64,000 nt of DNA, taken from the NCBI GenBank assembly GCA_014905635.1, contig JABVCE010000019.1, positions 496,001 through 560,000 on the forward strand. The letters are read 5' to 3'. This document shows, one piece after another, positions 4,175-64,000 of this stretch. A program made the translations under genes and the position numbers. The notes beneath the pieces were generated by a model. The model saw nothing but the letters and a program-made list of their open reading frames with translations, was not told where the DNA came from and did no database searches. The number at the start of each line of letters is the position of its first letter. Position 1 is the first letter of the stretch. Source of the DNA: Scenedesmus sp. PABB004 (lineage: Eukaryota).

Positions 4175-4210
<36 letters not shown>

Positions 4211-11903: not shown

Positions 11904-14577
<2,674 letters not shown>

Positions 14578-39643: not shown

Positions 39644-40024
39644 GGCGTCCGCGCCCGCCGGGGCCTGAGACGGGGGCGCCCGCGCGGGGCTGGCGGCAGC
39701 GCTGCCCTCGTGCACGGCTCTCCGCGCCTGCGCCGGCCTGCCTGTGGCTGCTCTGGCGGCGATCGCGGTGTGGCCGGGGACGGCGGTGAGCGCTGCTGGG
39801 CGGCCAGGGCCCTGGAGACCCGGCGCTGCGCCGCCGCCGTTGCGCCGCCCGGCGCGCGAATTGTGCCGCGTCGCCTTCCCTGCCACCCCTGAGCCGACAG
39901 AGCGCGCCCGCCCGCGTGCCCGCTGCCTCCGAGCATCACCAGCCGCAGCCGGCCGCCGCGCCGCGGCCAACGCCGCGCAGCAGCGTGCACACGCGCCGCG
40001 CAGGCCGCGAGCGCAGCCCGCGGC

Positions 40025-41076: not shown

Positions 41077-41107
<31 letters not shown>

Positions 41108-41109
41108 GC

Positions 41110-41147
<38 letters not shown>

Positions 41148-42093
41148 TCGACGACGACACCGCCGACGATGACGCCGGCGACAGTATGCGCTCGGCAGCG
41201 AGATTGCGCGGCGGCTGCGCCGGCTGCACGCGTGCCAGCGCCGCCTCACGGGCGCCGCGGCCGGCCTGCTGCAGCACTGCAGCAGCGCAGGCAGCGGGCA
41301 GGCGCACGCGCAGACGGTGCGGCGCCGACGGCGCGCAGCGGCGGCGGGCGGCGGCGCGCGCGCGCGGGCGGCCACGCCGCCGGCGGCTGCCCCGCGTGCA
41401 GGCGCTGGCGCTGGCGCAGCAGCTGGCGCGCCTGAGCGCGAGCGTGGCGGACCTGGCGGGCCTGAAGGACCTGCGCACGCCGCTGCTCGCGCGCGCGGCG
41501 CTGCGCTCGGGCTGCGGCCTGCTCGCGCCGCTGCTGAGCGGCGCGTGGCTCGCGGGCCTCGCCGGGCAGCCGGCCGGCGCGACAGGCATCGTGTTTGCCC
41601 TCGTGGCCGGAGCGATCGTGAGCGCAGTCCGCCTGCGCCGGGCCGCGCGGCGCCACGCGGCCGCCGCGCCGCGAGCGCGGCCACCGCGTGCCGTGGCGCG
41701 CGCCGCCGCGCAGTGCCAGGTGCTGCTGATGACTGCGCTCACGCTGGCGACGGGGCTCGAGGACCCCTTTGATACCGGCCCTGCCTCACCGCCCGACGCC
41801 CTCAGCCTCGCGGAGTGGGGCGCCGCGCTGGCATACGTGCGCGCGCGCCACCGCGGCCGCGGCTGCGCCCGGCGCAGCAGGGGGGGGGGGGGGGGGGTCA
41901 CGGTGGGGCAGCGCACACATGACCCGACGCAGCGCGCCCGCGTGCGGCACCGCCGCAGCTGACGGCGCCGCTTGACGACGGCGAGCCGGGGGAGCCGGAG
42001 CTGAGACCGGAGGAGCGCGAGGCGGCGCAGGTCAAGCACGCGCATCTGCCTGCGCGGCCGGTCAACGACGGTGCGTCTCCACCGGGGCCGTGA
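40025..42093 (+). CDS. Multi-pass membrane protein, bestrophin-like
   Basis: Two N-terminal and two C-terminal hydrophobic segments, LKDLRTPLLARA and GLEDPFD motif; family call is tentative. Confidence 0.55.
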
Positions 42094-42359
42094 GATTATA
42101 CGGCGGCGGCGGAGGCTCTACCCCTGTGTGACGCGTTGGCAAGGGCCCCTGCCCAGTGGCCGGACGCTGCATCGCCGTGCTGACGCGCTGCGCGCGCTGC
42201 GCGCGCGAGTTGCGCCAAGAAAACGGCCGCGGCGCGTCGGTGACGCTCGAGCGGGGAGCCAGACCCCCCACAGTGCTGTGGTGTGCGCTCGCCGCCGGCA
42301 CCAGCCGTCTCCCGCCGCACACGCCGCCCGCCGCCACCAGCTCGCGCGCGAACACAGCT

Positions 42360-42367
42360 GAATATTC
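42360..42367. promoter_or_regulatory. P1BS-consensus site GAATATTC upstream of PAP copy 1
   Basis: Exact match to GNATATNC about 140 bp before the ATG in a very GC-rich context. Confidence 0.5.
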
Positions 42368-42505
42368 AGTCACTCTCCAGTGCGCGACCGCGCGGCCCGT
42401 CCAGCCACGCCCAGCACTGCATACAGACGATCCTTGCGGCTGGAGCGTGGTCGCGCAGCCAGCGGTGCAGCGCCGCGCTGACTGTCAGCAGTGCCGCAGC
42501 TCACG

Positions 42506-45500
42506 ATGGCGGCTTTGCCGGGCACGGCCGCGCTGCTGGTCGCCCTGGTGGCGCTCTCGCTGGTGGGCGCCGTGACCATCTCCCCCGACGGCCCACCGGC
42601 GCAGCGCGTGTACAACCAGAGCGGCGAGGTGTCGGGCGCTGTCCCCGAGCTCCCGTTCAACTACACGCAGACGCTGCCCAACGGCGTCACGCTCACCACC
42701 GTCAAGACCGCTCCCGGCTGCTCGCCCGAGCAGGCGCGTTGGCCCCGGAGCTGTGCGGCGCCGGGGGCGGCCGGTGACGCTGCTGCTGCTGCTGCTGCCG
42801 CTGCCGCCGCTGGCTGATGCGCGCCCCTGCTCTTGTGCAGGTGAGCGTGACGTTCTACGGCATTGACAAGAACGGCTACGCCTCGGTGCTGGTGTCGTGG
42901 GCGACGTGCGACGCGGTGGTGAGCGGCGGGCTGGGGGACGCGTGCAGCCAGCCGGGACGGGAGCTCCAGGCCGCACCTGCAGGCCGCGCAGGCGACTCCC
43001 GTGATGCGCCGCATGCCCACACCCCAGGTGCAAACCACGGCGACGTCTGCCAACTGCACGGGCCCAGCCAAGCCGGGCACCGTGACGGGGCCGCTCTCGA
43101 CCGGCGGCCTCACGTCGCAGGTGCGCCTCCCCGGCATTGCGCGTTCTGCCGCTTGCGCCCCTGCTGCAGAGGCAACCAGTAAGCGCACGGACCGCGCCGC
43201 TTACCGCGCCTGCCTGCCGGCGCCTCCCCGCCCGCGCCGCCAGGTCTACTGGGTGGCCGCCGCATCCAGCCACGGCAAGACGCGGCTCTCGCAGGGCAAC
43301 TGCACCTCCTACGTCACACGCTATGCTCCGCAGTATGATGCGATGGTGTACGCCAGCCCGCTGCTGCACCACGTGCTGCTCGTCGGTGCGGTGCCTGCGC
43401 AGCAGGCGGCGCAGCGCCGCTCAGTGCAGTGCGTGCTGCGCTTGGCCGCTGCGCCGCCTGCTGAGCCCCTGCTGCACCTGCATGGCACGCCTAGGCCTCA
43501 AGCCCGGCGTGCGCTACAACTACACCGTGGTGGACAGCGTGCTCGCGGCCAGCTCGAGCGGCAGCACGCCGCGCCCGCTCGCGCCGGGCGAGACCGGGCC
43601 CCACCCCTTCTCTGGCCAGTTCATTGTGCGCAGCGCCACTCGGGCCGGGCTGGGGCGCGCCCATGTCCCGCCGCGCCAGGTCGCCCGGTCGGCTGCGTGC
43701 ACGCCAGCGCGGCGCTCACATGCGCTGCCGCCGCCGCTGGCGCCGCGTGCCGGCGCGTGCGCTCTCCGCGCGGCCGCAGGCGCCCGGTGCTGCGCCCGAG
43801 CAGAGTCCCTTTCCCTTCCAGATTGGGGTCATTGGTGCGGGGTCAGGAGCTGGGGCTGCATGGGTTTGATTGCAGCGCAAGCGGCTCGGCCCTGCTCCGT
43901 CGCTGACACCGAGACCGCCCCGCCACGCTGGCGCCGCAGGCGACCCCGGGCAGACCGCCAACACGACCGCCACGCTGCAGCACCTGATGGCACCTTGGGG
44001 CCTCGCAGCACCACGCCGCGCGTGGGACGAGGGCGGCATGAATCTGCTGATGATCCAGGGCGATTACACGTGCGGAGCAACGCGTCCCGCGACCAAGAAG
44101 CCCGCTCCGCGCTGCCGTGCCGCGCAGCCGGCCGTGAGAGTGCCTGCGCAGCAAACCGACCACCTGCCGCCGCCGGGCCCCCGCCTCGCCGCAGCTACGC
44201 CGATCGCCCTGACTACGCAGGCACTACGCCGCCGGGGTGCACGGTGTGCAACGCGAGCGGTGGAGCCAAGGGCTTCGAATACAGCCCCAGGTGTGCTGCG
44301 TGCTAGCACTACTTGACCGTAGCTTGCGTGCACGATGTGCGGGACACGCCCTGCGCACGCAGCAGGGGCCGCGCCTATGGATGAGCGCCCTCGCAATGCG
44401 TGCAGGTGGGACACGTGGGGCCGGCTGTTCCAGCCGCTGATGTCGGCGGTGCCAACCATCATGATCACCGGGAACCATGAATTGTGCTTTGAGCCCGACC
44501 CGCTGGCAGCGCCTCTTGACATCCCTCTGCGCCAGGTCGGGAGAGCGTTGGGGGCTCAGGTCATTTGCTGTTTTCAGCTCAAATCACAGCAGTCTCAGCG
44601 CTCAATCCTGCCTGCGCCCACCGCGCCGTGCCGCGCAGGCAACCTACAATGCGCGCTACCCACAGGCAGTGCGCGGGCCTCGCAACGCGCCCGACGCGAC
44701 GACGCTCGGCCCCGCGACCTCCGCGACGCCCTGGGCCAACGCGTATTACTCGGTCTCCGTGCCGGGCGTCGCGACCTGGATCGGGCTCTCCAGCTACAGC
44801 CCTGCGGAGATTGCCAACAGCAGCACGAGCAACGGCTTCACGAAGAACAGCGCGCAATACAAATGGCTCCAGCGCACGCTCGCGGTGCGGCGTGCGCAAG
44901 GGGCTTGGGGCCCAGGGTGCCGCGCTGGCGCCCGTGCTCGCGCCCGCGCCCGCGCCCGCCTCCCACGCCCGCTGAACGCCGCGGTTGACCGCGGTCCACC
45001 GCCGCCGGGCGCGCCAGGCGGTCAACCGCACCGCGACGCCGTGGGTGATTGTCAGCTGGCACGCGCCGTGGTACAACACCTACGTTAGCCACTTCAAAGA
45101 GAACGAGTGCATGCACCAGGCAAGCACGAATGCGGCGGGGCAGGCCAGCTGTAGCGTGCACTGGCATGGCCTGCTCAGCGCTCACCCCGCGTGCGCCGCG
45201 CCGCAGATGTACGAGCCGCTGCTGCTGGAGGCAAGTGTTGACATCGTGCTACTGGGCCACGTGCACGCGTACGAGCGCACCAAGCCGGTCGCAGACTTTC
45301 AGGTGCGTGACACCGCGTGACACCTCGCGCGACGATGCCGTCTAGTCGCACTGGGCCACTCAGCGCGCGGCGAGCAGCAGGCAAGGGTGAGCTGCCTCGC
45401 TGACGCCGTTGCCACCGCCGCTGTGCAGGTGGACGGCGGGGGCTGCGCGCCGATGTACGTCACGATCGGGGACGGTGGCAATGTGGAGGGCGTTTCGAGC

Positions 45501-46099
45501 GAATTCATCACAGGTGAGGAGGCTTGCCCGGATCCTGTGGTTGCTTTTTTTCAGTCGCGGCCTGGCGCCGGCCGCCCCACACCAACGCTGCCCTGCACCC
45601 GTGGCCCACCTCCGCCCGCGCCGCCCACACGAACGCCCGCGGCGATGCAGCCAATTACACTAGCAAATCACTCAACTGCGACACGCCCGAGACGTACAAG
45701 TTTCCCTCCTACCAGCCGCAACAGTGCTTCACCTATCAGTCGGGCCCCGGCAGTGGCTGCGCTAACGACGCGCGCTGCTACTGCTATGAGAGCCAGGTGC
45801 GGCGCGGCTGCAGGCGCGGCATGGGCTGGGGCCGAGCGGGCAGCCGGCCGCCTGTGCCCGCCGCCCGCCGCCCCACTCATCACGCACCCCCATCTCCCTC
45901 AACCACGTCCCGCCCCTCATACCAACGCCGCCAGCCGGCGTGGAGCGCGTACCGCGAGCCGAGCTTTGGGCACGGCCGGCTGCACCTCAACAGCGCGACG
46001 AGCGCGGTCTGGCAGTGGTTCCGCAACGACGGCGGCGTCATGGCCGTCACCGACGAGGTCACCATCACGCGCGACCCGCGCTGCACGCGGCGGCGCTGA
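42506..46099 (+). CDS. Purple acid phosphatase, PAP15/PAPhy-like, copy 1
   Basis: Signal peptide; PEQV; motifs GDPG, GDYTYAD, GNHE, VSWHAPWY, GHVHAYER; SAYREPSFGHG. Confidence 0.93.
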
Positions 46100-46404
46100 C
46101 GCGCCGCGGCCATCAGCTCGCGGGCGCTGGGCCACGCGCGCAGCGATTCGGCTCAACCATTGAGCAGCGAGTGTCGGGGCGCGCAGCCTCCATGAAGAAG
46201 AGGAGCGGCATTCTTCATTGCGTGGTTCCGCCCATCACCAAGGTTATATATACACCCAGACTGTGGCGCCCACATGCTAAGGTATGCCCGGAGCGTCTGC
46301 AGACACAGCTGGCTCCGCGGGGCGCGCCCCGCGGACGCGGCGCCGCAAGCAGGCTGCCGTTGACTGTGATGATGACCGAATTGCTGTCACACAGATCAAG
46401 TTCA

Positions 46405-46409
46405 TGTAA
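46405..46409 (+). terminator. TGTAA poly(A) signal of PAP copy 1
   Basis: About 300 nt after the stop codon. Confidence 0.55.
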
Positions 46410-46781
46410 TGTGTGACGCGTGGCAAAGCCCCCTGCCCAGCGGGCTCGCGGTCGGCCGAACGCTCCGCTGTGCTGCGTCGCGAGCAGCACAAAACGGCCT
46501 GCGGCGCGTCGGTGACGCTCGCGCGGGAAGCCGGCGCGCACAGTGCGGTGGTGCGCTCGACGCTCGACGCGGCCACCACCCGTGTCCAGCTCCCGCACCT
46601 TGCAGCAGCCTGAGCGCCGCAGGCAGCGCAAGCGCCGCAGCGGCGGCAGTCACTCCCAGCGCGATCGCGCCGCCCGGCGCGCCACGCCCGAGACTGCAGA
46701 CATACGATACCTGCGGCTGGCGGTTGTCGCGCGCAGCTTGCGCCGCAGCTGGAGCGCCGTGCTCCCCGGCAGCAGCACCAG

Positions 46782-49700
46782 ATGCCGAGGGCCGCGGTGG
46801 CGGGCCCGAGCGTGCTGCTGGTCGCCCTGGCGGCGCTCTCGCTGGCGGGTGCCGTGACCATCTCCCCCGACGGCCCGCCTAAGCAGCGCGTGTACAACCA
46901 GAGCGGCGAGGTGTCGGGCGCTGTCCCCGAGCTCCCGTTCAACTACACGCAGACGCTGCCCAACGGCGTGACGCTGACCACCGTCAAGACCGCGCCCGGC
47001 TGCTCGCCCGAGCAGGCGCGCTGGCCCCGGAGCAGCGCGGCCCCGGGGGCGGCCGGTGACGCTGCTTTTGCTGCTGCTGCCGCTGCCGCCGCTGGCTGAT
47101 GCGCGCCCCCTGCTCCTGTGCAGGTGAGCGTGACGTTCTACGGCATCGACGAGAACGGCTACGCCTCGGTGCTGGTGTCGTGGGCGACGTGCGACGCGGT
47201 GGTGAGCGGCTGGGCGTGGGCGCGCGTGCCGCCAGCCGGGACGGGAGCTCCAGGCCGCACCTGCAGGCCGCGCAGGCGACTCCCCTGGCGCGCCGCGTCC
47301 CCGCATCCAGGTGCAAACCACGGCGACGTCTGCCAACTGCACGGGCCCAGCCAAGCCGGGCACCGTGACGGGGCCGCTCTCGACGCGCGGGCTCACGTCG
47401 CAGGTGCGCCAGCCCGGTGATGTTTGTCGCGCAGCAGTCGTCTCCGGCTGGCCCTGTGGTGGTAAACAGCACCCACGCACCTCATTGCGTTGCCCTGCCG
47501 GCGCCTCCCCGCCCGCGCCGCCAGGTCTACTGGGTGGCGGCCGCCTCCAAGGGCAGCAAACCGCAGCTCTCGCAGGGCAACTGCACCTCCTACGTCACAC
47601 ACTATGCTCCGCAGTATGATGCGATGGTGTACGCCAGCCCGCTGCTGCACCACGTGCTGCTCGTCGGTGCGGCGCCTGCGCAGCGGGCGGCGCAGCGTGC
47701 GGCGCAGCGCGGCCCCGCTAGCGCGTGCTGCGCTTGGCCGCTGCGCCGCCTGCTGAGCCCCTGCTGCACCTGCATGGCACGCCTAGGCCTCAAGCCCGGC
47801 GTGCGCTACAACTACACCGTGGTGGACAGCGTGCTCGCGGCCAGCTCGAGCGGCAGCACGCCGCGCCCGCTCGCGCCGGGCGAGACCGGGCCCCACCCCT
47901 TCTCTGGCCAGTTCATTGTGCGCAGCGCCACTCGGGCCGGGCTGGGGCGCGCCCATGTCCCGCCGCGCCAGGTCGCCCGGTCGGCTGCGTGCACGCCAGC
48001 GCGGCGCTCACATGCGCTGCCGCCGCCGCCGCTGCCGCCGCGTGCGCTCTCCGCTTGGCCGCAGGCGCCCGGTGCTGCGCCCGGGCAGAGTCCCTTTCCC
48101 TTCCAGATTGGGGTCATTGGTGCGGGGTCAGGGTCTGCATGGGTTGGATTGCAGCGCAAGCGGCTTGGCCTTGCGCCGCCCCTCTCACCGGGACCGCCCC
48201 GCCACGCTGGCGCCGCAGGCGACCCCGGGCAGACCGCCAACACGACCGCCACGCTGCAGCACCTGATGGCACCGTGGGGCCTCACAGCACCGCGCCGCGC
48301 GTGGGACGAGGGCGGCATGAATCTGCTGATGATCCAGGGCGATTACACGTGCGGGGCACCGCGTCCCGCGGCCACGAAGCCCACTGCGCGCTGCCGTGCC
48401 GCGCAGCCGGCCGTGAGAGCGCCCGCGCAGCAAACCGACCACCTGCCGCCGCCGCGCGCCCGCCTCGCCGCAGCTACGCCGATCGCCCTGACTACGCAGG
48501 CACTACGCCGCCGGGGTGCACGGTGTGCAACGCGAGCGGCGGAACCAAATTGTTTGATTACGGCCCCAGGTGTGCTGCGTGCTTGCACCGCTTGGCAGTG
48601 GCTTGTGTGCGCGCCGTGGGGGACACGCGCTGCGCACACAGCGGGGGCCGTGCCCTTGACCGAGAGCGCCCTCGCATGCGCGCAGGTGGGACACGTGGGG
48701 CCGGCTGTTCCAGCCGCTGATGTCGGCGGTGCCAACCATCATGATCACCGGGAACCATGAATTGTGCTTGAAGCCCGACCCGCTGGCGGCGCCACTTGAC
48801 ATCCCTCTGCGCCAGGTCGGGAGAGCGTTGGGGGCTCAGGTCATTTGCTGTTTTCAGCTCAAATCACAGCAGTCTCAGCGCTCAATCTTGCCTGCGCCCG
48901 CCGCGCCGTGCCGCGCAGGCAACCTACAATGCGCGCTACCCCCAGGCGACGCGCGGGCCTCGCAACGCGCCCGACGCGACGACGCTCGGCCCTGTGACCT
49001 CCGCGACGCCCTGGGCCAACGCGTATTACTCGGTCTCCGTGCCGGGCGTCGCGACCTGGATCGGGCTCTCCAGCTACAGCCCTGCGGAGATTGCCAACAG
49101 CAGCACGAGCAACGGCTTCACGAAGAACAGCGCGCAATACAAATGGCTCCAGCGCACGCTCGCGGTGCGGCGTGCGCAAGGGGCTTGGGGCCCAGGGTGC
49201 CGCGCCCTCGCTCCGCCCGCCACGGGGCGCCCCCGCCCCGCCCGCCGCCTGCCGTGGCTGACCGCGTCAACCGGCGCCGGGCGCGCCAGGCGGTCAACCG
49301 CACCGCGAGGCCGTGGGTGATTGTGAGCCTCCACGCGCCGTGGTACAACACCTATGTTAGCCACTTCAAAGAGAATGAGTGCATGCGCCAGGCGAGCACG
49401 CACGCTGCAGAGCCAGCCAGAAGCTGCTGCTAACAGGCAGCTTGCACTGGCACGGCCTGCTCAGCGCTCACCCGCGTGCGCCGCGCCGCAGGTGTACGAG
49501 CCGCTGCTGCTGGAGGCAAGTGTTGACATCGTGCTGCTAGGCCACGTGCACGCGTACGAGCGCACCAAGCCGGTCGCAGACTTTCAGGTGCGCGACAACT
49601 CGCGCGACGCTGCCGTCCGGTCGCACTGGGCCGCTCAGCGCGCGGCAAGCGGCCGAGCTGCCTCGTTGATGCCGTTGCCTCCGCCGCTGTGGCTGCGCAG

Positions 49701-50387
49701 GTGGACAGGGGGGGCTGCGCGCCGATGCACGTCACAATCGGTGACGCCGGCAACGTGGAGGGCGTCGCGAGTGCTTTCATCACAGGTGAGGAGGCTCGCA
49801 AGGGGCCTGCCGCTGCTCTTAGCCGCGGCCTGGCGCCGGCCGCCCAACCAAAATCCCCCCTGCGCCCGTCGCCCGCCTCCGCCCTCGCTGCCCACACCGA
49901 CGACCGCCGTGATGCAGCCAACGTGACCGGCAAGTATTTAAGTTGCTCCACGCCGGAGACGTACAAATTTCCCTCCTACCAGCCGCAGAGCTGCCTCAGC
50001 TTCCATTCGGGCCCCGGCAGCGGCTGCGCGGGCGGCGCGCGCTGCTTCTGCTACGCCAGCCAGGTGCGGAGTGCTCGCGCGGGGTTGGCTCGGGCTGGGG
50101 CCAGGCGGGGTGGCCGGCCGCCTGCGCCCGTCGCCCACCGCGCCCGGCGCCGGCGTGAGCCTGGGGCCCCTCACTCCCGGCCTCCGTCACCCGCACAACC
50201 CTTCGACCCACGCCCCCACCAGCCGGCGTGGAGCGCGTACCGCGAGCCGAGCTTTGGGCACGGCCGGCTGTACCTCAACAGCCCGACGAGCGCGGTCTGG
50301 CAGTGGTTCCGCAACGACGGCGGCGTCATGGCCGTCACTGACGAGGTCACCATCACGCGCGACCCGCGCTGCACGCGGCGGCGCTGA
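46782..50387 (+). CDS. Purple acid phosphatase, copy 2
   Basis: Same exon structure; all five metal-ligand motifs intact. Confidence 0.93.
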
Positions 50388-51067
50388 CGCGCCGCGGCCG
50401 TGAGCTCGCGGGCGCTGGGCCATGCGGGCAGCAATTTGCTGCTATTTTTCTGCACGTGTTAGGGGCCCCGCTCGCAACACGGTTGCCTGTAGGAACTTGC
50501 ACTTGCGTCATGATCGTTGCATGGTTGCACAGCAGAATTCAACACTGAGAATGTGTGGCTCTCACTGCCAGGGGTGGTGTATGCGTGCCGTCAAAACATT
50601 GGAAGCCCGCCGAGTGCGTGTCGGACCCGCAAAACGGCGGAGGGTCGCGGCCGCGGGCGGGCTGACCGAGACAGCCGGATTGCGGTCACATAGACCAATT
50701 TCATGCATTTGTGACGCGTGGCACAAACCACTGCCCAGCGGCCACGCTGACGCGCCGGACGTCGCGGAAGCAGGAAAAACACGGTCGCAACGCGTCGGTG
50801 ACGCTCGCGCGGAAAGGCCGGCGCGCACGGGCGGTGGTGTGGTCCCGCCGCCACCTGTCTTCCCTAGCTATCTCGCGCACCTTGCAGCAGCTCAGCTGCT
50901 GAGCGCCGCACAGGCGGGCAGCAGCGGCGGCAGTCACTCCCAGCGCGATCGCGCCGCCCGGCGCGCCACGCCCGAGACTGCAGACATACGATACCTGCGG
51001 CTGGCGGTTGTCGCGCGCAGCTTGCGCCGCAGCTGGAGCGCCGTGCTCCCCGGCAGCAGCACCAGAG

Positions 51068-54000
51068 ATGCCGAGGGCCGCGGTGGCGGGCCCGAGCGTG
51101 CTGCTGGTCGCCCTGGCGGCGCTCTCGCTGGCGGGTGCCGTGACCATCTCCCCCGACGGCCCGCCTAAGCAGCGCGTGTACAACCAGAGCGGCGAGGTGT
51201 CGGGCGCTGTCCCCGAGCTCCCGTTCAACTACACGCAGACGCTGCCCAACGGCGTGACGCTGACCACCGTCAAGACCGCGCCCGGCTGCTCGCCCGAGCA
51301 GGCGCGCTGGCCCCGGAGCAGCGCGGCCCCGGGGGCGGCCGGTGACGCTGCTTTTGCTGCTGCTGCCGCTGCCGCCGCTGGCTGATGCGCGCCCCCTGCT
51401 CCTGTGCAGGTGAGCGTGACGTTCTACGGCATCGACGAGAACGGCTACGCCTCGGTGCTGGTGTCGTGGGCGACGTGCGACGCGGTGGTGAGCGGCTGGG
51501 CGTGGGCGCGCGTGCCGCCAGCCGGGACGGGAGCTCCAGGCCGCACCTGCAGGCCGCGCAGGCGACTCCCCTGGCGCGCCGCGTCCCCGCATCCAGGTGC
51601 AAACCACGGCGACGTCTGCCAACTGCACGGGCCCAGCCAAGCCGGGCACCGTGACGGGGCCGCTCTCGACGCGCGGGCTCACGTCGCAGGTGCGCCAGCC
51701 CGGTGATGTTTGTCGCGCAGCAGTCGTCTCCGGCTGGCCCTGTGGTGGTAAACAGCACCCACGCACCTCATTGCGTTGCCCTGCCGGCGCCTCCCCGCCC
51801 GCGCCGCCAGGTCTACTGGGTGGCGGCCGCCTCCAAGGGCAGCAAACCGCAGCTCTCGCAGGGCAACTGCACCTCCTACGTCACACACTATGCTCCGCAG
51901 TATGATGCGATGGTGTACGCCAGCCCGCTGCTGCACCACGTGCTGCTCGTCGGTGCGGCGCCTGCGCAGCGGGCGGCGCAGCGTGCGGCGCAGCGCGGCC
52001 CCGCTAGCGCGTGCTGCGCTTGGCCGCTGCGCCGCCTGCTGAGCCCCTGCTGCACCTGCATGGCACGCCTAGGCCTCAAGCCCGGCGTGCGCTACAACTA
52101 CACCGTGGTGGACAGCGTGCTCGCGGCCAGCTCGAGCGGCAGCACGCCGCGCCCGCTCGCGCCGGGCGAGACCGGGCCCCACCCCTTCTCTGGCCAGTTC
52201 ATTGTGCGCAGCGCCACTCGGGCCGGGCTGGGGCGCGCCCATGTCCCGCCGCGCCAGGTCGCCCGGTCGGCTGCGTGCACGCCAGCGCGGCGCTCACATG
52301 CGCTGCCGCCGCCGCCGCTGCCGCCGCATGCGCTCTCCGCTTGGCCGCAGGCGCCCGGTGCTGCGCCCGGGCAGAGTCCCTTTCCCTTCCAGATTGGGGT
52401 CATTGGTGCGGGGTCAGGGTCTGCATGGGTTGGATTGCAGCGCAAGCGGCTCGGCCCTGCTCCGCCGCTCGCGCTGCCCCACGCTGCCGCTGCACCACGC
52501 TGGCGCCGCAGGCGACCCCGGGCAGACCGCCAACACGACCACCGTGATGCAGCACCTGATGGCGCCGTGGGGCCTCACGGCACCGCGTCGCGCGTGGGAC
52601 AAGGGCGGCATGGATCTGCTGATGATCCAGGGCGACCTCAGGTGTTGTATTGGCACCGCCGTGCTCCTCCGGTTGCGGCTGCACTTGCGCGCACCACACC
52701 ACACACCAACCACCTGCCGCCGCGACGCGCGCCTCGCCTCGCCGCAGCTACGCCGACCAACCTCAGATTGAAGGCACCGTGCCGCCGGGGTGCGTAATGT
52801 GCAACGCGAGCGACGGGCCCGAGGATTTCGATTATGGCCCCAGGTGCGGCGCTGTGTGCAGTGTGCTGTGCCGTGGCTTGTGCCGGCGTGCGCGCCGTGT
52901 GGGACACGCGCTGCGCACACAGCGGGGGCTCTCGGCGCGGCCGCACCGAGAGCGCCCGCGCCGCGTGCAGGTGGGACACGTGGGGCCGGCTGTTCCAGCC
53001 GCTGATGTCGGCGGTGCCAACCATCATGATCCCCGGAAACCATGAATGTGGCTTTGAGCCCGACCCGCTGGCGGCGGCCCTGGACATCCCGCTGCGCCAG
53101 GTGTGAGGGTGCTGTGGCTCACCCTCAAACCACTGCGGGCTCAGCCCCATGACCCTGCCTTGACCTGCTGCGCCTCGCAGAGGGTCTACAATGCACGCTA
53201 CCCACAGGCGGTGCGCGGGCCGCGCAACGCGCCCGACGCGACGACGCTCGGCCCCGCGACCTCCGCGACGCCCTGGGCCAACGCGTATTACTCGGTCTCC
53301 GTGCCGGGCGTCGCGACCTGGGTCGGGCTTTCGAACTACAGCCCTGCGGAGATTGCCAACAGCAGCAGCAACAACGGCTTCACGAAGAACAGCGCCCAGC
53401 ACAAGTGGCTCCAGCGCACGCTCGCGGTGCGGCGTGCGCAGGGGGCTTGGGGCCGAGGGCGCTGCGCCCGCCGCCTGGCACGCGCGCGCCGCGGCTGACG
53501 GGGTCAACCGCCGGGCGTGCCAGGCGGTCAACCGCACCGCGACGCCGTGGGTGATTGTGAGCCTCCACGCGCCGTGGTACAACACCTACACCGAGCACTT
53601 CAAAGAGAACGAGTGCATGCGCCAGGCAAGCACGCATGCGCTGGGGCCAGCCAGGAGCTGCTCACACCTCGCACTGCCATGAGCTGCTCAGCGCTCACCG
53701 GGCGTGTGTACGGCCCGCGCCGCAGGTGTACGAGCCGCTGCTGCTGGAGGCAAGCGTGGACATCGTGCTGCTGGGCCACGTGCACGCGTACGAGCGCATC
53801 AAGCCGCTCGCAGACTTTCAGGTGCGCAGCACCTTGCGCGACGCTGCCTTCTGGCGCCACTGGGCCACTTAGCACGCGGCGAGCAGCAGGCAAGGGCGAG
53901 CTGCCTTGTTGAGGCATTGCCGTCGCCACTGCTTCTGCGCAGGTGGACAACAGGGGCTGCGCGCCGATGCACGTCACGATTGGCGACGCCGGCAACTCGG

Positions 54001-54631
54001 AGGACGTCGCTAAGACGTTTGTTACAGGTGAGCGGGCTCATGGGCTCGCGTGCCTCGGCAGCTTGCCCTTATCTGCGGCTGCCCCACACCGGCGCCCCCG
54101 CCGCCTGCCGCGCCGGCCCGTTGTGGCGGGGACGCCCCCTGTGATGCAGCCAACGCGGCACGTGGTCATCACTTCAACTGCTCCAAGCCCGTGAAGGACT
54201 TTACCTACGCGTTTCCCGCCTACCAGCCGCAGAGCTGCCTCAGCTTCCAGTCGGGCCCCGGCAGCGGCTGCGCTGGCGGCGCGCGCTGCTTCTGCTACGC
54301 CAGCCAGGTGCGGAGCGCTCGCGCGGGCTTGGCTCGGGCTGGGGCTGGGCGGGGTGGCCGGCCGCCTGCGCCCGTCGCCCACCGCGCCCGGCGCCGGCGT
54401 GAGCCTGGGGCCCCTCACTCCCGGCCTCCGTCACCCGCACAACCCTTCGACCCACGCCCCCACCAGCCGGCGTGGAGCGCGTACCGCGAGCCGAGCTTTG
54501 GGCACGGCCGGCTGTACCTCAACAGCGCGACGAGCGCGGTCTGGCAGTGGTTCCGCAACGACGGCGGCGTCATGGCCGTCACCGACGAGGTCACCATCAC
54601 GCGCGACCCGCGCTGCACGCGGCGGCGCTGA
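51068..54631 (+). CDS. Purple acid phosphatase, copy 3
   Basis: GDPG, GDLSYAD, GNHE, VSLHAPWY, GHVHAYER. Confidence 0.93.
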
Positions 54632-55313
54632 CGCGCCGCGGCCGTGAGCTCGCGGGCGCTGGGCCATGCGGGCAGCAATTTGCTGCTATTTTTCTGCACG
54701 TGTTAGGGGCCCCGCTCGCAACACGGTTGCCTGTAGGAACTTGCACTTGCGTCATGATGTTGCATGGTTGCACAGCAGAATTCAACACTCAGAATGTGTG
54801 GCTCTCACTGCCAGGGGTGGTGCATGGGTGCCGTCAAAACATTTGAAGCCCGTCGAGTGCGTGTCGGACCCGGAGAAGGCGGAGGGTCGCGGCCGCGGGC
54901 GGGCTGACCGTGACAGCCGAATTGCGGTCACATAGACCAATTTCATGCATTTCTGACGCGTGGCACGACCCACTGCCCAGCGGCCACGCTGACGCGCCGG
55001 ACGTCGCGGGAGCAAGCAAGCAAGCAAACGGTCGCAACGCGTCGGTGACGCTCGCGTGGAAAGGCCGGCGCGCACGGGCGGTGGTGTGGTCCCCGCCGCC
55101 ACCGGTCGCCGAGCTATCTCGCGCACCTTGCAGCAGCTCAGCTGCTGAGCGCTGCACAGGCGGGCAGCAGCGGCGGCAGTCACTCTCAGCGCGATCGCAC
55201 CGCCCGGCGCGCCACGCCCGAGACTGCAGACAGACGATACCTGCGGCTGGCGGTTGTCGCGCGCAGCTTGCGCCGCAGCTGGAGCGCCGTGCTCCCCGGC
55301 AGCAGCACCAGAG

Positions 55314-58220
55314 ATGCCGAGTGCCGCGGTGGCGGGCCCGGGCGCGCTCCTGGTCGCCCTGGCGGCGCTCGCGCTGGCGGGTGCCGTGACCATCTCCCCC
55401 GACGGCCCGCCAAAGCAGCGCGTGTACAACCAGAGCGGCGACCCCTCCGGCGCGGTGCCGTTCAACTACACGCAGACGCTGCCCAACGGCGTGACGCTGA
55501 CCACCGTCAAGACCGCGCCCGGCTGCTCGCCCGAACAGGCGCGCTGGCCCCCCGGAGCTGCGCGGCGCCGGGGGCGGCCGGTGACGCTGCTGCTGCTGCT
55601 GCTGCCGCTGCCGCCGCTGGCTGATGCGCGCCCCTGCTCTTGTGCAGGTGAGCGTGACGTTCTACGGCATTGACAAGAACGGCTACGCCTCGGTGCTGGT
55701 GTCGTGGGCGACGTGCGACGCGGTGGTGAGCGGCTGGGCGTGGGCGCGCGTGCGGCCGGCGGCGGCGGCAGCTGCTGCAGGCCGCACCTGCAGGCCGCGC
55801 AGGCGACTCCCCTGGCGCGCCGTGTCCCCGCATCCAGGTGCAAACCACGGCGACGTCTGCCAACTGCACGGGCCCAGCCAAGCCGGGCACCGTGACGGGG
55901 CCGCTGTCGACCGGCGGCCTCACGTCGCAGGTGCGCCTCCCCGGCATTGCGCGTTCTGCCGCTTGCGCCACCGCTGCAGAGGCAACCAGTAAGCGCACGG
56001 ACCTTGCCGCTCACCGTGCCTGCCTGCCGGCACCTTTCCGCCCTCGCCGCCAGGTCTACTGGGTGGCCGCCGCATCCAGCCACGGCAAGACGCGGCTCTC
56101 GCAGGGCAACTGCACCTCCTACGTGACACGCTATGCTCCGCAGTATGATGCGATGGTGTACGCCAGCCCGCTGCTGCACCACGTGCTGCTCGTCGGTGCG
56201 GCGCCTGCGCAGCGGGCGGCGCAGCGTGCGACGCATCGTCGCCCTTTGAGCGCGTGCTGCGCTTGGCTGGCCCCCGCAGCGCTGCGCCGCCTGCTGAGCC
56301 CCTGCTGCACCTCCATGCTCGCCCAGGCCTCAAGCCCGGCGTGCGCTACAACTACACCGTGGTGGACAGCGTGCTCGCGGCCAGCTCGAGCGGCAGCACG
56401 CCGCGCCCGCTCGCGCCGGGCGAGACCGGGCCACACCCCTTCTCTGGCCAGTTCATTGTGCGCAGCGCCGCTGCGGGGGCCGGGCTGGGGCGCGCCCATG
56501 TCCCGCCGCGCCAGGTCGCCCGGTCGGCCGCGCGCACGCCAGCGCAATGCTCTCACTTGCTGCCGCCGCCGCTGGCGCCGCGTGCCGGCGCGTGCGCTCA
56601 CCGTGCGGCCGCAGGCGCCCGGTGCTGCACCCGGGGAGAGTCCCTTTCCCTTCCAGATTGGTGTCCTTGGTGCGAAGTCAGGGGCTCGGGTTGCTTGGGT
56701 TTGGGTTTGATTGGAGCGCAAGCGGCTCGGCCCTGCTCCGCCGCTCACACCGGGACCGCCCCGCCACGCTGCCGCCGCAGGTGACCCCGGGCAGAGCGCC
56801 AACACGACCTACTCAATGCAGCACCTGATGGCGCCGTGGGGCCTGACAGCACCGCGTCGCGCGTGGAACAAGGGCGGCATGGATCTGCTGATGATTACAG
56901 GCGACCTCAGGTGTGTTTGGGGCATTTGCACCGCACTGCAGCGCCGGTCGCCAGCACGCCCGCAAACCAAACTGACCACCCGCCCCCGCCGCGGGTGCCT
57001 TGCGCTCGCTGCAGCTACGCGGATGACTCTGACACCCCAGGAGTGTCACCACCGGGGTGCGTAATGTGCAACGCAAGTGGCGGAAGCAAGGGCTTCGAGT
57101 ACGGCCCCAGGTGGGCGCTGTGCGCTGTGTGCTGTGCCGTGGCTTGTGTGCCGGCAGGCGCGCTGTGAAAAACACGCTGCGTGCGCACCAGGGGTCGAGC
57201 TCTGGATCAACAGCGCCCGCGCTGCGTGCGCAGGTGGGACATGTGGGGCCGGCTGTTCCAGCCGCTGCTGTCGGTGGTGCCGATGATCTCAATCAACGGC
57301 AATCACGAGGTCGGCTTTGAGCCCGACCCTCTGGCAGCACCGATCGACATCCCGCTCCGCCAGGTCTGAGGGTGGTGGGGGCACAGGCTGTTTGCTGTTG
57401 TGCCCAAACCACTGCGGGCTCAGCCCCATGACCCCGCCTTGACCTTGCTGCGCCTCGCAGGGGCTCTACAATGCGCGCTACCCACAGGCGGTGCGTGGGC
57501 CGCGCAACGCGCCCGACGCAACGACGCTCGGCCCCGCGACCTCCGCGACGCCCTGGGCCAACGCGTATTACTCGGTCTCCGTGCCGGGCGTCGCGACCTG
57601 GATCGGGCTGTCCAGCTACAGCCCTGCGGAGATTGCCAACAGCAGCACCAGCAACGGCTTCACCAAGAACAGCACGCAGTACAAGTGGCTCCAGCGCACG
57701 CTCGCGGTGCGGCGTGCGCAAGGGGCTTGGGGCCCAGGGTGCCGCGCCCTCGCTCCGCCCGCCGCGGGGCGCCCCCGCCCCGCCCGCCGCCTGCCGTGGC
57801 TGACCGGGTCAACCCCCGCCGCGGCGCGGCGCGCCAGGCGGTCAACCGCACCGCAACGCCGTGGGTGATTGTGAGCTTCCATGCGCCCTGGTACAACACC
57901 TATGTCAACCACTTCAAAGAGAATGAGTGCATGCGCCAGGCGAGCACGCACGCGGCAGGGCCAGCGAGGAGGTGCACACCTTGCACTGGCACAGCCTGCT
58001 CAGCGCTCACCACGTGTGCGCCGTGCCGCAGGTGTACGAGCCGCTGCTGCTGGAGGCAAGCGTCGACATCGTGCTCCTTGGCCACGTGCACGCGTACGAG
58101 CGCAGCAAGCCGCTCGCAGACTTTCAGGTGCGCGACACCTCGCGCGACGCTGCCGGCGGATGGCACTCGGCCGCTCAGCAGCGCGCGGCGTTCAACGCCG
58201 AGCAGTCCTTGACGCGGCCG

Positions 58221-58277
<57 letters not shown>

Positions 58278-58924
58278 AGGTGGACAACGGTGGCTGCTCG
58301 CCGATGCACGTCACGATCGGGGACGCTGGCAACACGGCGGAGTTGGACTCCAGCTTTATCACAGGTGAGGCGGGCCCTGCGTGGGTGAGGGCCGCGGCAT
58401 GGTGGTGCCGCCCAGCACCAACGCCCTGAACCCGCGGCCCACCTGCGCCCGCCACCTCCACCCAACTCCCCGCGTGACGCAGCCAACGCGACCAGCAAAT
58501 CGTTCGACTGCGCCACGCCCGAGACGTACGCGTTTCCCTCGTACCAGCCACAGAGCTGCCTCACCTACCAGTCGGGCCCCGGCAGTGGCTGCGCTAACGA
58601 CGCGCGCTGCTACTGCTACGCCAGCCAGGTGCGGAGCGCTCGCGCGGGCATGGGCTGGGGCCAGGCGGGGTGGCTGGCCGCCTGCGCCCGCCGCCCACCG
58701 CCCCACTCACACCTCACCCCGCATCTCCCCCAACCCCTCGCCCACCTCCCAATTCCAAGCCGGCGTGGAGCGCATACCGCGAGCCGAGCTTTGGGCACGC
58801 CCGGCTGTACCTCAACAGCGCGACGAGCGCGGTATGGCAGTGGTTCCGCAACGACGGCGGCGTCATGACGCTGACAGATGAGGTGACCATCACGCGCGAC
58901 CCGCGCTGCTCCACTTCTGCCTAG
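55314..58924 (+). CDS. Purple acid phosphatase, copy 4
   Basis: GDPG, GDLSYAD, GNHE, VSFHAPWY, GHVHAYER; ends CSTSA-stop. Confidence 0.92.
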
Positions 58925-59277
58925 CTCCCATCTGCCCGTCCACCCACATCACTGACTGTTACGGCAGACCATCAGGGGTGCTGTCGGGGCTTGTGAGGCC
59001 CGGCTCGTGGGGGGGGGGGGGGGGGGCATGGGTGGGGCTGCCGACGGGCTGCCTTGACAGGGCTTTGCACACCACGCAATATTATTGCGCGGCTCCCTCC
59101 CTTCCAGCTTGCTGCGCACTTGCCTGGGGGCTGGCGGCATGTCCGGCCCAGGGCCCGGCCGCTTGAGGCCCGCGCGCTGATTTACGCACGCCGCAGCCGC
59201 ACTCACGCGCGGGCTGTGATTGGAGCGGAATCTGATCTTCTCTCCACGTCAAGCACTTGACACATCCGGATAGCTTG

Positions 59278-59282
59278 TGTAA
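59278..59282 (+). terminator. TGTAA poly(A) signal after PAP copy 4 (repeated at 63260 after copy 5)
   Basis: About 350 nt after the stop codon in both units. Confidence 0.55.
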
Positions 59283-59328
59283 CAATGAACTCGTTGCTCT
59301 AGGGTCTGTGGCGGCGGCGGCGGCGGCA

Positions 59329-62300
59329 GCGGTGGCGGGCCCGAGCGTGCTCCTGGTCGCCCTGGCGGCGCTCTCTCTGGCGGGTGCCGTGACCATCTCC
59401 CCCGACGGCCCACCGGCGCAGCGCGTGTACAACCAGAGCGGCGAGGTGTCGGGCGCTGTCCCCGAGCTCCCGTTCAACTACACGCAGACGCTGCCCAACG
59501 GCGTGACGCTGACCACCGTCAAGACCGCGCCCGGCTGCTCGCCCGAACAGGCGCGCTGGCCCCCCCGGAGCTGCGCGGCGCCGGGGGCGGCCGGTGACGC
59601 TGCTGCTGCTGCTGCTGCCGCTGCCGCCGCTGGCTGATGCGCGCCCCTGCTCTTGTGCAGGTGAGCGTGACGTTCTACGGCATTGACAAGAACGGCTACG
59701 CCTCGGTGCTGGTGTCGTGGGCGACGTGCGACGCGGTGGTGAGCGGCTGGGCGTGGCGCGCGTGCGGCCGGCGGCGGCGGCAGCTGCTGCAGGCCGCACC
59801 TGCAGGCCGCGCAGGCGACTCCCCTGGCGCGCCGTGTCCCCGCATCCAGGTGCAAACCACGGCGACGTCTGCCAACTGCACGGGCCCAGCCAAGCCGGGC
59901 ACAGTGACGGGGCCGCTGTCGACGCGCGGCCTCACGTCGCAGGTGCGCCTCCCCGGCATTGCGCGTTCTGCCGCTTGCGCCACCGCTGCAGAGGCAACCA
60001 GTAAGCGCACGGACCTTGCCGCTCACCGTGCCTGCCTGCCGGCACCTTTCCGCCCTCGCCGCCAGGTCTACTGGGTGGCCGCCGCATCCAGCCACGGCAA
60101 GACGCGGCTCTCGCAGGGCAACTGCACCTCCTACGTGACACGCTATGCTCCGCAGTATGATGCGATGGTGTACGCCAGCCCGCTGCTGCACCACGTGCTG
60201 CTCGTCGGTGCGGCGCCTGCGCAGCGGGCGGCGCAGCGTGCGACGCATCGTCGCCCTCCGAGCGCGTGCTGCGCTTGGCCGCCGCGCCGCCTGCTGAGCC
60301 CCTGCTGCACCTCCATGCTCGCCCAGGCCTCAAGCCCGGCGTGCGCTACAACTACACCGTGGTGGACAGCGTGCTCGCGGCCAGCTCGAGCGGCAGCACG
60401 CCGCGCCCGCTCGCGCCGGGCGAGACCGGGCCACACCCCTTCTCTGGCCAGTTCATTGTGCGCAGCGCTGCGGGGGCCGGGCTGGGGCGCGCCCATGTCC
60501 CGCCGCGCCAGGTCGCCCGGTCGGCCGCGTGCGCGCCAGCGCGGCGCTCACTTGCTGCCGCCGCCGCTGTGCGCGCTCACCGTGCGGCCGCAGGCGCCCG
60601 GTGCTGCGCCCGGGGAGAGTCCCTTTCCCTTCCAGATTGGGGTCATTGGTGCGGGGTCGGGGGCTGGGGCTGCATGGGTTTGCAGCGCAAGCGGCTCGGC
60701 TCTGCGCCGCCGCTCGCGCTGCCCCACACTGCCGCTGCGCCACGCTGGCGCCGCAGGCGACCCTGGGCAGACCGCCAACACGACCACCGTGATGCAGCAC
60801 CTGATGGCGCCGTGGGGCCTCACGGCACCGCGTCGCGCGTGGAACAAGGGTGGCATGGATCTGCTGATGATCCAGGGCGACCTCAGGTGAGGGGCATGGG
60901 CTCCACACACTACCGCGCTGTGCCGCTGGTCACGAGCACGCCTGCACACCAACCTGACCACCCGCCGCCGCCCACGTGCCGAACCGCAGCTGTGCGGATC
61001 GCTCAGACCTGCCAGGAGTCACCCCGGCGGGTTGCAAGATGTGCAACGCCAGCGACACTCATGAGTTCGAGTATGGCCCCAGGTGCGGCTGCCACGTTTC
61101 ACCTCAGCCTGCGCCGGCATGCGCGCTGTGCGCCGCTGCAGCCGGGGTCGCCACGCCACGGACAAGAGGGTGCCCGCGCCGCGTGCGCAGGTGGGACACG
61201 TGGGGCCGGCTGTTCCAGCCGCTGCTGTCGGCGGTGCCGATGATCTCAATCAACGGCAACCACGAGGTCGCCTTTGAGCCCGACCCGCTGGTTCCGCCGA
61301 TCGACATCCCTCTGCGCCAGGTCTGAGGGTGCTGGGGGCTCAGGTCATTTGTTGTTTTCAGCTCAAATCACAGCAGTCTCAGCCCTCAGTCTTGCCTGCG
61401 CCCGCCGCGCCGTGCCGCGCAGGCGACCTACAATGCGCGCTACCCACAGGCAGTGCGTGGGCCGCGCAACGCGCCCGACGCGACGACGCTCGGCCCCGCG
61501 ACCTCCGCGACGCCCTGGGCCAACGCGTATTACTCGGTCTCCGTGCCGGGCGTCGCGACCTGGATTGCGCTGTCCAGCTACAGCCCCGCTGAGATCGCCA
61601 ACAGCAGCACCAGCAACGGCTTCACCAAGAACAGCGCGCAGTACAAGTGGCTCCAGCGCACGCTCGCGGTGCGGCACACGCAGGGGGCTTGGGGCCCAGG
61701 GTGCCGCGCCCTCGCTCCGCCCGCCGCGGGGCGCCCCCGCCCCGCCCGCCGCCTGCCGTGGCTGACCGGGTCAACCCCCGCCGCGGCGCGGCGCGCCAGG
61801 CGGTCAACCGCACCGCAACGCCGTGGGTGATTGTGAGCTTCCATGCGCCCTGGTTCAACACCTATGCCAACCACTTCAAAGAGAACGAGTGCATGCGCCA
61901 GGCGAGCACGCACGCGGCAGGGCCAGCCAGAAGCTGCTGCTAACAGGCAGCTTGCACTGGCACGGCCTGCTCAGCGCTCACCCCGCGTGCGCCGCGCCGC
62001 AGGTGTACGAGCCGCTGCTGCTGGAGGGGAACGTTGACATTGTGATTGTGGGGCACGTGCACGCTTACGAGCGCACCAAGCCGCTCGCAGACTTTCAGGT
62101 GGCGCCGCCGCGCGGCAGCTCACGCGGCTCCGTCGACAGAGTGCACTCGGCCGCTCAGCAGCGCGCGGCGCGTGGCAGGCACAGCCGAGCAGTCCTTGAC
62201 GCCGCCACCGCCGTCGCCGCCGCTGCCGTGCAGGCGGATAACACTGGCTGCGCGCCAATGCACGTCACGATTGGTGATGGCGGCAACGTGGAGGGCATGG

Positions 62301-62914
62301 CTGAGAGCTTCATCACAGGTGTGGGAGGGGTCGTGGAGGCGCGAGGCAGCTACAAAGGCAGTGACCCAGGCGCTTGCTCTCAGCCACGGCCTTGCGCTGG
62401 GCGGCCTCACCGACGCCCGCCCGCGCCCGCCCCGCCCGCGCGCCCCACGCGCCATGCTGGTGCCCATGGCAGCCAACGGTAGCACCCCGAACTACAATTG
62501 TTCCACGCCCGAGACTTACGCGTTTCCCTCGTACCAGCCACAGAGCTGCCTCACCTACCAGTCGGGCCCCGGCAGCGGCTGCGCTAACGACGCGCGCTGC
62601 TTCTGCTACGCCAGCCAGGTGCGGCGCGCTCGCGCGGGCATGGGCTGGGGCCAGGCGGGGTGGCTGGCCGCCTGCGCCCGCCGCCCACCGCCCCACTCAC
62701 ACCTCACCCCGCATCTCCCCCAACCCCTCGCCCACCTCCCAATTCCAAGCCGGCGTGGAGCGCATACCGCGAGCCGAGCTTTGGGCACGCCCGGCTGTAC
62801 CTCAACAGCGCGACGAGCGCGGTATGGCAGTGGTTCCGCAACGACGGCGGCGTCATGACGCTGACAGATGAGGTGACCATCACGCGCGACCCGCGCTGCT
62901 CCACTTCTGCCTAG
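59329..62914 (+). pseudogene. Purple acid phosphatase copy 5, probable pseudogene
   Basis: 326-bp deletion relative to copy 6 removes the upstream region and ATG; no in-frame ATG before the signal peptide; GDLSYAD changed to GDLSCAD (TGT at 60991); other exons appear open. Confidence 0.7.
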
Positions 62915-63624
62915 CTCCCATCTGCCCGTCCACCCACATCACTGACTGTTACGGCAGACCATCAGGGGTGCTGTCGGGGCTTGTGAGGCCCGGCTCGTGG
63001 GGGGGGGGCATGGGTGGGGCTGCCGACGGGCTGCCTTGACAGGGCTTTGCACACCACGCAATATTATTGCGCGGCTCCCTCCCTTCCAGCTTGCTGCGCA
63101 CTTGCCTGGGGGCTGGCGGCATGTCCGGCCCAGGGCCCGGCCGCTTGAGGCCCGCGCGCTGATTTACGCACGCCGCAGCCGCACTCACGCGCGGGCTGTG
63201 ATTGGAGCGGAATCTGATCTTCTCTCCACGTCAAGCACTTGACACATCCGGATAGCTTGTGTAACAATGAACTCGTTGCTCGAGGGTCTGTGGCGGCGGC
63301 GGCGGCGGCAGCGGCAGAGGCGCAACGAGTCGCGCCGCGGCCGTCAACTCAGGCCCTGCGGTGACCCCTCCCGGCTGTGGTGCGCTCCTACCTCCCTCCT
63401 CCGGCGCCGTTGCTCACTCCCGCACCTCTGAACGCTGCACAGGCCGCGCACACGGCAGCGGCGCGGCAGCAGCGGCGACAGCTCACTCTTGCAATCCCTG
63501 CACGCCACAGCGTCCGGCCTGGCACGCCCGGCGCTGCACCTCAAAGATCATCGCGGTTGGCGCTTGGTGGCGCAGCTTGCGCAGCTAGCGCCGCAGCTGG
63601 AGCGTCGTGCTCACCGTCAGCAAG

Positions 63625-64000
63625 ATGCCGAGGGCCGCGGTGGCGGGCCCGAGCGTGCTCCTGGTCGCCCTGGCGGCGCTCTCTCTGGCGGGTGCCGTGA
63701 CCATCTCCCCCGACGGCCCACCGGCGCAGCGCGTGTACAACCAGAGCGGCGAGGTGTCGGGCGCTGTCCCCGAGCTCCCGTTCAACTACACGCAGACGCT
63801 GCCCAACGGCGTGACGCTGACCACCGTCAAGACCGCGCCCGGCTGCTCGCCCGAACAGGCGCGCTGGCCCCCCCGGAGCTGCGCGGCGCCGGGGGCGGCC
63901 GGTGACGCTGCTGCTGCTGCTGCTGCCGCTGCCGCCGCTGGCTGATGCGCGCCCCTGCTCTTGTGCAGGTGAGCGTGACGTTCTACGGCATTGACAAGAA
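63625..64000 (+). CDS. Purple acid phosphatase copy 6 (cut by the window end)
   Basis: MPRAAVAGPSVLLVALAALSLAGAVTISPDG...PEQ | VSVTFYGIDK. Confidence 0.88.

Follow-up and report, generated by a model that had tools for sequence, protein, structure and literature searches.

Introduction

The textbook cases of mosaic and concerted evolution are the globin arrays, the opsin arrays and the resistance-gene clusters of plants. Arrays of this kind consist of head-to-tail paralogues with identical tracts of 0.1–1.5 kb that run through introns and spacers, the tracts have sharp edges, the trees change along the gene, and a dead copy may lie inside the array. These features, the dead copy being a probable one, recur in a tandem array of purple acid phosphatase (PAP) genes that we describe here from Scenedesmus sp. 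PABB004, in a stretch of 64,000 nucleotides (nt) that we call the window (GenBank assembly GCA_014905635.1, contig JABVCE010000019.1, positions 496,001 to 560,000 of the forward strand; all coordinates below are those of the window). Our analysis indicates that this is probably a lineage-specific array of at least six PAP genes whose neighbouring units have exchanged DNA repeatedly.

PAPs carry five motifs with seven metal ligands, GDxG, GDxxY, GNH(D/E), VxxH and GHxH. The plant PAPs of the PAP15/phytase type have these five motifs and the Metallophos and Metallophos_C domains in common with the proteins of the array, and in the solved PAP 6git both a Cys-containing insertion after GDxxY and an insertion before the C-terminal domain align with the array proteins. 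A full-text literature search, judged by titles and abstracts, returned nothing on algal PAP arrays with gene conversion.

Results

Organization of the array

Direct repeats with a start-to-start spacing of 3,954–4,337 nt run from position 42125 to the end of the window, and the array (42125..64000, + strand) has periods of 4282, 4286, 4237, 4012 and 4308 nt and continues past the window end. The initial annotation, made from the letters of the window, had proposed at least six head-to-tail units of about 4.3 kb starting at 42125, and this agrees with what we found: similarity to the later units begins at that position, and five complete units of 4.0–4.3 kb each are followed by a sixth that is truncated by the window end, all of them head-to-tail on the + strand. 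Cut in register, the units span 42106–46387 (unit 1), 46388–50673 (unit 2), 50674–54910 (unit 3), 54911–58922 (unit 4), 58923–63230 (unit 5) and 63231–64000 (unit 6, partial). Pairwise whole-unit identity among the complete units is 77–90%.

To describe the genes we used the annotated junctions of unit 3, minus one retained in-frame intron (donor GTGCGG at 51953, acceptor ending at 52072), and projected them onto the other units through the unit alignment. Removal of the retained intron restores the HHVLL-x-GLKPG spacing found in all homologues, and a relative of 630 amino acids (aa), P0002, whose 3,131-nt record is probably a transcript, aligns without gaps across the model junctions except at the retained stretch. 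The projected model gives every unit a 15-exon structure with conserved donors and acceptors, and the spliced frames of units 1–5 (1,920–2,007 nt) are free of internal stops. The genes, all on the + strand, extend from 42506 to 46099 in unit 1 (ATG to stop, 15 exons, 640 aa, no internal stop), from 46782 to 50387 in unit 2 (15 exons, 642 aa), from 51068 to 54631 in unit 3 (15 exons, 646 aa) and from 55314 to 58924 in unit 4 (15 exons, 639 aa, C-terminus CSTSA). The gene body of unit 5 (59329..62914) lacks its promoter, 5' untranslated region (5'UTR) and ATG and has exons 2–15 intact, while unit 6 (63625..64000) shows the ATG, exon 1, intron 1 and 32 nt of exon 2 before the window ends. The exons of unit 3 lie at 51068–51301, 51410–51487, 51597–51689, 51811–51952, 52073–52203, 52351–52405, 52512–52641 and 52748–52843 (exons 1–8) and at 52971–53100, 53181–53426, 53524–53625, 53726–53821, 53943–54027, 54150–54307 and 54467–54631 (exons 9–15).

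Units share sharply bounded tracts with different sisters

The longest exchange tract lies in unit 2 (46637..48165), where 1,528 nt comprising the 5' flank, exons 1–6 and introns 1–5 are identical to unit 3 (50921..52451), while the neighbouring 300 nt on either side are only 64% and 70% alike. In agreement with the earlier claim that shared blocks include near-identical introns, introns 1–5 are thus 100% identical between the two units. Along the alignment of units 2 and 3, windows of 150 columns are 100% identical at columns 375–1650, 61–74% at 2025–2325 and 97–100% at 3900–4400. The centre of unit 2 (48131..49725, bounds approximate) instead resembles unit 1 (about 43851–45440), to which it is 82–100% alike in 150-column windows as against 65–93% for unit 3, and at columns 1875–2175 units 1 and 2 are 91–98% and units 2 and 3 65–91% alike, so that the gene of unit 2 has unit 3-like ends and a unit 1-like centre. 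Unit 4 holds a tract (55548..56468) that matches unit 5 (59561–60468) in identical runs of 342, 332 and 185 nt with few differences between them; by column, this pair is 98–100% alike at 675–1575, 57–77% at 2100–2325 and 100% at 3975–4200. Unit 5 in turn carries 364 nt (59329..59692) identical to unit 6 (63637–64000, where the window ends); to the left of this tract the two units are 31% alike. At columns 1800–1950 unit 5 is 96–97% like unit 3. Taking the tracts with 100% identity together, they include introns and intergenic DNA and are flanked by DNA of 31–77% identity.

The initial annotation had grouped the units by eight motif or intron variants, and all eight groupings were borne out by the unit alignment and the translations. 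PPAQR is found in units 1, 5 and 6 and PPKQR in units 2, 3 and 4; GIDKN occurs in units 1, 4 and 5 and GIDEN in units 2 and 3, with unit 6 reading GIDK before the window ends; STGGL unites units 1 and 4, and STRGL units 2, 3 and 5. Further along the gene, SSHGKTRL (units 1, 4 and 5) stands against SKGSKPQL (units 2 and 3), TATLQH/GDYT (units 1 and 2) against TTVMQH/GDLS (units 3 and 5), and GCANDARC (units 1, 4 and 5) against GCAGGARC (units 2 and 3). The intron after the GNHE exon, intron 9, sets units 1, 2 and 5 against units 3 and 4, and the ending CTRRR is common to units 1, 2 and 3 and CSTSA to units 4 and 5. Unit 4 has a variant of its own, TYSMQH, combined with GDLS. The sliding-window identities likewise agree with the claim that the closest relative of a unit changes along the gene.

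Exchange mostly homogenizes the 5' third of the genes. Mean identity is 0.97–1.00 in exons 2, 3 and 5 and 0.95 in intron 1, while the most divergent parts are introns 7, 8, 12 and 13, with means of 0.50–0.61, introns 7 and 8 ranging from 43 to 92% across pairs. Exons 8, 13 and 14 have mean nucleotide identities of 0.72, 0.76 and 0.79, respectively, and these three exons and introns 7, 8, 12 and 13 have escaped exchange. Two further patterns were considered and rejected. For GC-biased conversion, the correlation between mean identity and GC over the 14 introns was not significant (Spearman 0.49, p = 0.078). A clustering of tract edges near exon ends was dropped, the edges being isolated single-base or homopolymer-length differences; by hand count, 6 of 27 edges lay 4–16 nt past an exon end, with about one expected.

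No single duplication tree fits the units

Alignment of the five complete units gave 3,690 gap-free columns, 1,086 of them variable and 439 parsimony-informative. Among the 360 biallelic sites that split the units 2:3, 191 fitted the tree ((2,3),1,(4,5)) and the other 169 backed conflicting splits and were clustered. The pairwise homoplasy index (PHI) was 0.2607, compared with a permuted mean of 0.4105 (sd 0.0048), and none of 2000 permutations was as low; the same 0/2000 was obtained for the gene body (z = -27.6), for exons only (z = -8.2) and for introns only (z = -16.4). None of 2000 permutations produced a stretch of agreeing polymorphic sites as long as the longest one observed, and this held for all ten unit pairs.

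The approximately unbiased (AU) test was applied to the 15 possible trees in 20 sliding windows of 400 columns. Not one of the 15 was accepted in all 20 windows, and the best, 23|1|45, was accepted in 15, confirming the earlier statement that no single duplication tree fits; the sliding-window trees are incongruent, not congruent, along the unit. With exons only, whose alignment is not in doubt, exons 1–4 accepted only trees that join units 2 and 3, and exons 5–7 only trees that join units 1 and 2. By a conservative count, at least about five conflicting blocks lie over the backbone tree.

Probable exchanges of different ages, and purifying selection

Synonymous divergence (dS) between units 2 and 3 was 0 in exons 1–6, 0.22 in exons 7–9, 0.36 in exons 13–14 and 0.026 in exon 15. 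Over exon 15, units 4 and 5 had a dS of 0. Along the gene as a whole, dS between other pairs reached 0.79. Since dS varies along the gene within one pair, the exchanges must differ in age, and some are very recent.

The ratio of nonsynonymous to synonymous divergence (dN/dS) was 0.14–0.63 in every region and pair, and over all ten pairs it was 0.26–0.60 in exons 7–9 and 0.27–0.58 in exons 13–14, with no value above 1. Because dN/dS stays within 0.14–0.63 throughout, the genes are under purifying selection, relaxed in places, with no sign of diversifying selection.

The missing 5' end of unit 5

Unit 5 resembles the other units from a point 12 nt past their ATG, and it has no in-frame ATG. The 408 nt in front of it (58925..59332, + strand) match 62915–63314, the first 400 nt past the stop of unit 5, at 97.8% identity, which identifies them as the 3' flank of unit 4. 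Within this flank TGTAA occurs at 59278, and its last part is a (GCG)n run directly adjoining codon 5 of unit 5. The promoter, 5'UTR and start codon, about 300 nt in all, are missing, and this loss explains the short period of 4,012 nt; the position of the break at the (GCG)n run suggests a microhomology-mediated deletion. In addition, the GDxxY motif of unit 5 reads GDLSC, a Cys replacing the iron-binding Tyr ligand, and the other four motifs are kept. Judging from these changes, unit 5 is probably a dead copy, or one transcribed only by run-on from unit 4. Its dN/dS is not raised, as would be expected if conversion kept refreshing it.

TGTAA, which we take to be the green-algal poly(A) signal, occurs at 46405, 59278 and 63260, i.e. 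306–354 nt past the stops of units 1, 4 and 5. After units 2 and 3 the + strand has no TGTAA, and the 3' flanks of these two units (50388–51067 and 54632–55313) are of a different type and 95% alike.

Protein family

All five motifs (GDxG, GDxxY, GNHE, VxxH and GHVH) are present in units 1–4. A database search with one open reading frame (ORF) led to one protein, P0001, recorded as PAP15 of Scenedesmus sp. PABB004 (1977 aa), which matches Metallophos (PF00149) with 103.7 bits (E 2.3e-29, cut-off 21.5) and Metallophos_C (PF14008) with 75.7 bits (E 4.4e-21). The single-exon ORFs of unit 1 match Metallophos weakly, and its last-exon ORF scores 37.4 bits on Metallophos_C. The N-terminal PAP domain PF16656 gave no match in P0001 at E <= 0.01; in P0002 it scored 20.9 bits, under the cut-off of 30, and homologues that bear it align over that region. 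Among solved structures, the purple acid phosphatases 6git and 6gja come closest (E 2.6e-58); we take them to be a cereal phytase, the structure table saying only 'Purple acid phosphatase'. Accordingly placed by similarity, the array genes would be of the plant PAP15/phytase-like type, an ordinary family, and phosphatase activity of their products may be presumed. The array proteins differ from the plant PAPs in that their N-terminal domain has an additional insertion, common only to P0002, in that they are only about 30–40% identical to any relative outside the array and in that PF16656 gave no match at E <= 0.01. A hydrophobic N-terminus and many NxS/T sites suggest that the array proteins are secreted.

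The proteins of units 1–5 are 86–92% identical to one another. The nearest protein outside the array reaches 40–42%, suggesting that the PAP expansion is lineage-specific. In Parachlorella kessleri, the locus tags of two PAP homologues (P0013 and P0014) are two apart on one contig, so tandem PAP duplicates may be common in green algae.

The public gene model and the GC-AG introns

P0001 reads letter for letter on 40411–54628 of the window. It is a merged model that joins an unrelated upstream gene (annotated 40411–42069) to parts of units 1–3, omits exons in units 1 and 2 and keeps intron 4 in units 2 and 3. The upstream gene itself (40411..42096, + strand) has six annotated exons and an in-frame stop at 42094–42096. 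The models given above correct this public model, which fuses four genes. Protein searches returned no separate model of fitting size for units 4–6.

On grounds of homology, the gene model requires introns 1 and 11 to be GC-AG introns: at these two conserved positions all copies would have GC donors (e.g. at 42734 and 45120), with the sequences GCGCGT/GCGCGC and GCAAGC/GCGAGC.

Base composition and surroundings

According to a comparative-genomics paper (PMC12571836), the assembly comprises 39.8 Mb in 77 contigs with an N50 of 1.3 Mb and 78.5% GC, and the base composition of the window agrees with the GC value given there. Within the window, G+C ranges from 70 to 82%, the last 22 kb having 0.69–0.73 as against 0.78–0.82 just upstream. 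The array (42001–64000) lies 7–12 points below 32001–42000 in G+C, with equal G+C at third codon positions (GC3): its genes have a GC3 of 0.86–0.90, compared with 0.887 in the neighbouring gene, and codon positions 1 and 2 carry the lower GC. A horizontal origin, which the lower GC had suggested, was ruled out by this match, and because their GC3 is like that of the neighbouring gene the array genes appear native to the host. Most introns of the array have a GC of 0.72–0.85 (intron 9, 0.64) and the exons 0.60–0.73.

Simple repeats were seen upstream of the array, namely a (CGG)n-rich stretch at 4516–4709, (CACA)n over 273 nt at 13856–14128 and (GGGCTG)n over 253 nt at 30984–31236, and intron 12 of unit 4 contains a (CGC)n run of 62 nt (58213–58274). 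Scans of the window with Rfam and for tRNAs gave no match.

Metagenome sequences carry the same variants

A search of sequencing runs gave matches of small share in five freshwater metagenomes and one unlabelled run; no run contained half of the words of the window, and there was no RNA run among these six matches. Pieces from four of the runs (X1, X2, X3 and X6) were compared with unit 3 only. At least 45 differences were seen in all, and at 30 of the 40 that were listed the metagenome letter was that of another unit at the same column. Some combinations are absent from units 1–5, for example at 53758/53770/53773, sites that lie within 16 nt; such combinations were seen in the freshwater runs X1, X2 and X3. 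That the letters match other units, and do so in new combinations, points to variants that are real in nature and reassorted, either in other strains or in additional copies. Scanning metagenome contigs with P0001 yielded a single weak locus (L001, 35% identity) among 27 pattern matches, one unsuited to a comparison of arrays.

Discussion

The array, its gene models and the mosaic, with its statistical support, can be read directly from the window. As to how the mosaic arose, we infer that neighbouring units exchanged DNA repeatedly by non-allelic homologous recombination, through gene conversion, unequal crossing-over or both, two routes that look the same from one assembly. The youngest exchanges would have left the identical tracts of 0.3–1.5 kb through exons, introns and intergenic DNA and the older ones tracts that are 90–98% alike, with stretches that escaped being only 50–75% alike. 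The outcome would be five different proteins, each a patchwork of variants common with different sisters.

Several observations weigh against this explanation or narrow it. The tree ((2,3),1,(4,5)) still fits 10 of 12 exon/intron partitions, so that duplication in the usual way accounts for part of the pattern. As an event count, the minimum of 73 given by the Hudson-Kaplan method was discarded, being inflated by multiple hits in near-saturated introns. Assembly errors could account for a few tract edges that consist of one homopolymer-length difference; the mosaic was read from one assembly; and the metagenome pieces, at most 353 nt long, 95–100% alike and of low depth, span no long tract.

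These points lead to the possibility that the mosaic is an artefact, the assembler having jumped between units or polishing having copied letters from one to another. Repeats of 4.3 kb in an array make assembly difficult, and some of the differences that end tracts are homopolymer-length changes of 1 nt. However, conflicting blocks such as intron 9 and the centre of unit 2 as compared with unit 3 differ by 20–35%, which is beyond polishing, and the switches come every few hundred nt, often where no long identity is present, unlike the path errors of an assembly graph. Splice sites and reading frames are intact in every unit, the alternative letters recur in independent metagenome contigs (30 of the 40 listed), and the assembly was presumably built from long reads, judging from the 77 contigs and N50 of 1.3 Mb reported in PMC12571836. 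We therefore regard an artefact as very unlikely. The chance that there was no exchange, and that old duplicates merely look mosaic through uneven constraint, is close to nil: exons are indeed more alike than most introns, but introns 1–5 are 100% identical between units 2 and 3 while introns 7 and 8 are at 43–92% across pairs, the introns-only PHI was not reached in any of 2000 permutations, and adjacent blocks of exons have no accepted tree in common.

A different question is whether selection keeps the exchange going because it recombines active-site loops and so yields secreted phosphatases or phytases that differ in substrate, a proposal that extends repeated exchange between neighbours and is compatible with it. 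Protein differences are concentrated in exons 8, 13 and 14 (0.72, 0.76 and 0.79), exons 8 and 14 code for the Cys-containing insertions, which lie close to the catalytic motifs and align with the insertions of 6git, and four copies retain all metal-binding motifs. Nevertheless, none of the ten pairs has a dN/dS above 1 in exons 7–9 or 13–14, the variable exons are those least touched by an exchange that mostly homogenizes, and unit 5 is probably dead, which makes this proposal doubtful. Its stronger form, a selected diversity generator in which frequent exchange keeps the N-terminal domain and the catalytic core uniform and reassorts a few ancient, divergent active-site loop cassettes (exons 7–9 and 13–14), we consider unlikely. 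If it were true, the alga would have a range of secreted phosphatases or phytases suited to different sources of organic phosphorus, one that it could remodel quickly, and wild relatives would carry other combinations of cassettes. The initial annotation had gone in this direction, proposing that ongoing exchange shuffles modules into a repertoire of phosphate-scavenging enzymes. Exchange stands, on the evidence of sharp tracts, incongruent trees and a dS of 0; a useful repertoire is doubtful, given dN/dS values of 0.14–0.63, an exchange that is mostly homogenizing and one of five complete copies (unit 5) that looks dead.

Repeated exchange between neighbouring PAP units has value as an example. 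Here the exchange between paralogues is clean and well bounded, the host is a green alga whose GC is about 78%, and the identical and near-saturated segments, lying side by side, are useful for work on conversion tract length and GC bias. The family concerned, probably secreted phosphatases, may be relevant to how this alga, which is of biotechnological interest, takes up phosphorus.

Exchange between paralogues in tandem arrays is textbook biology, and the array calls for no new mechanism; what sets it apart from the known cases of concerted evolution is the family, PAPs, and the host, a green alga of such high GC. The cassette systems of antigenic variation likewise move segments between paralogues into new combinations. 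The PAP array differs from them in having neither an expression site nor a silent-donor architecture, in showing no sign of diversifying selection and in that its exchange mostly homogenizes the copies.

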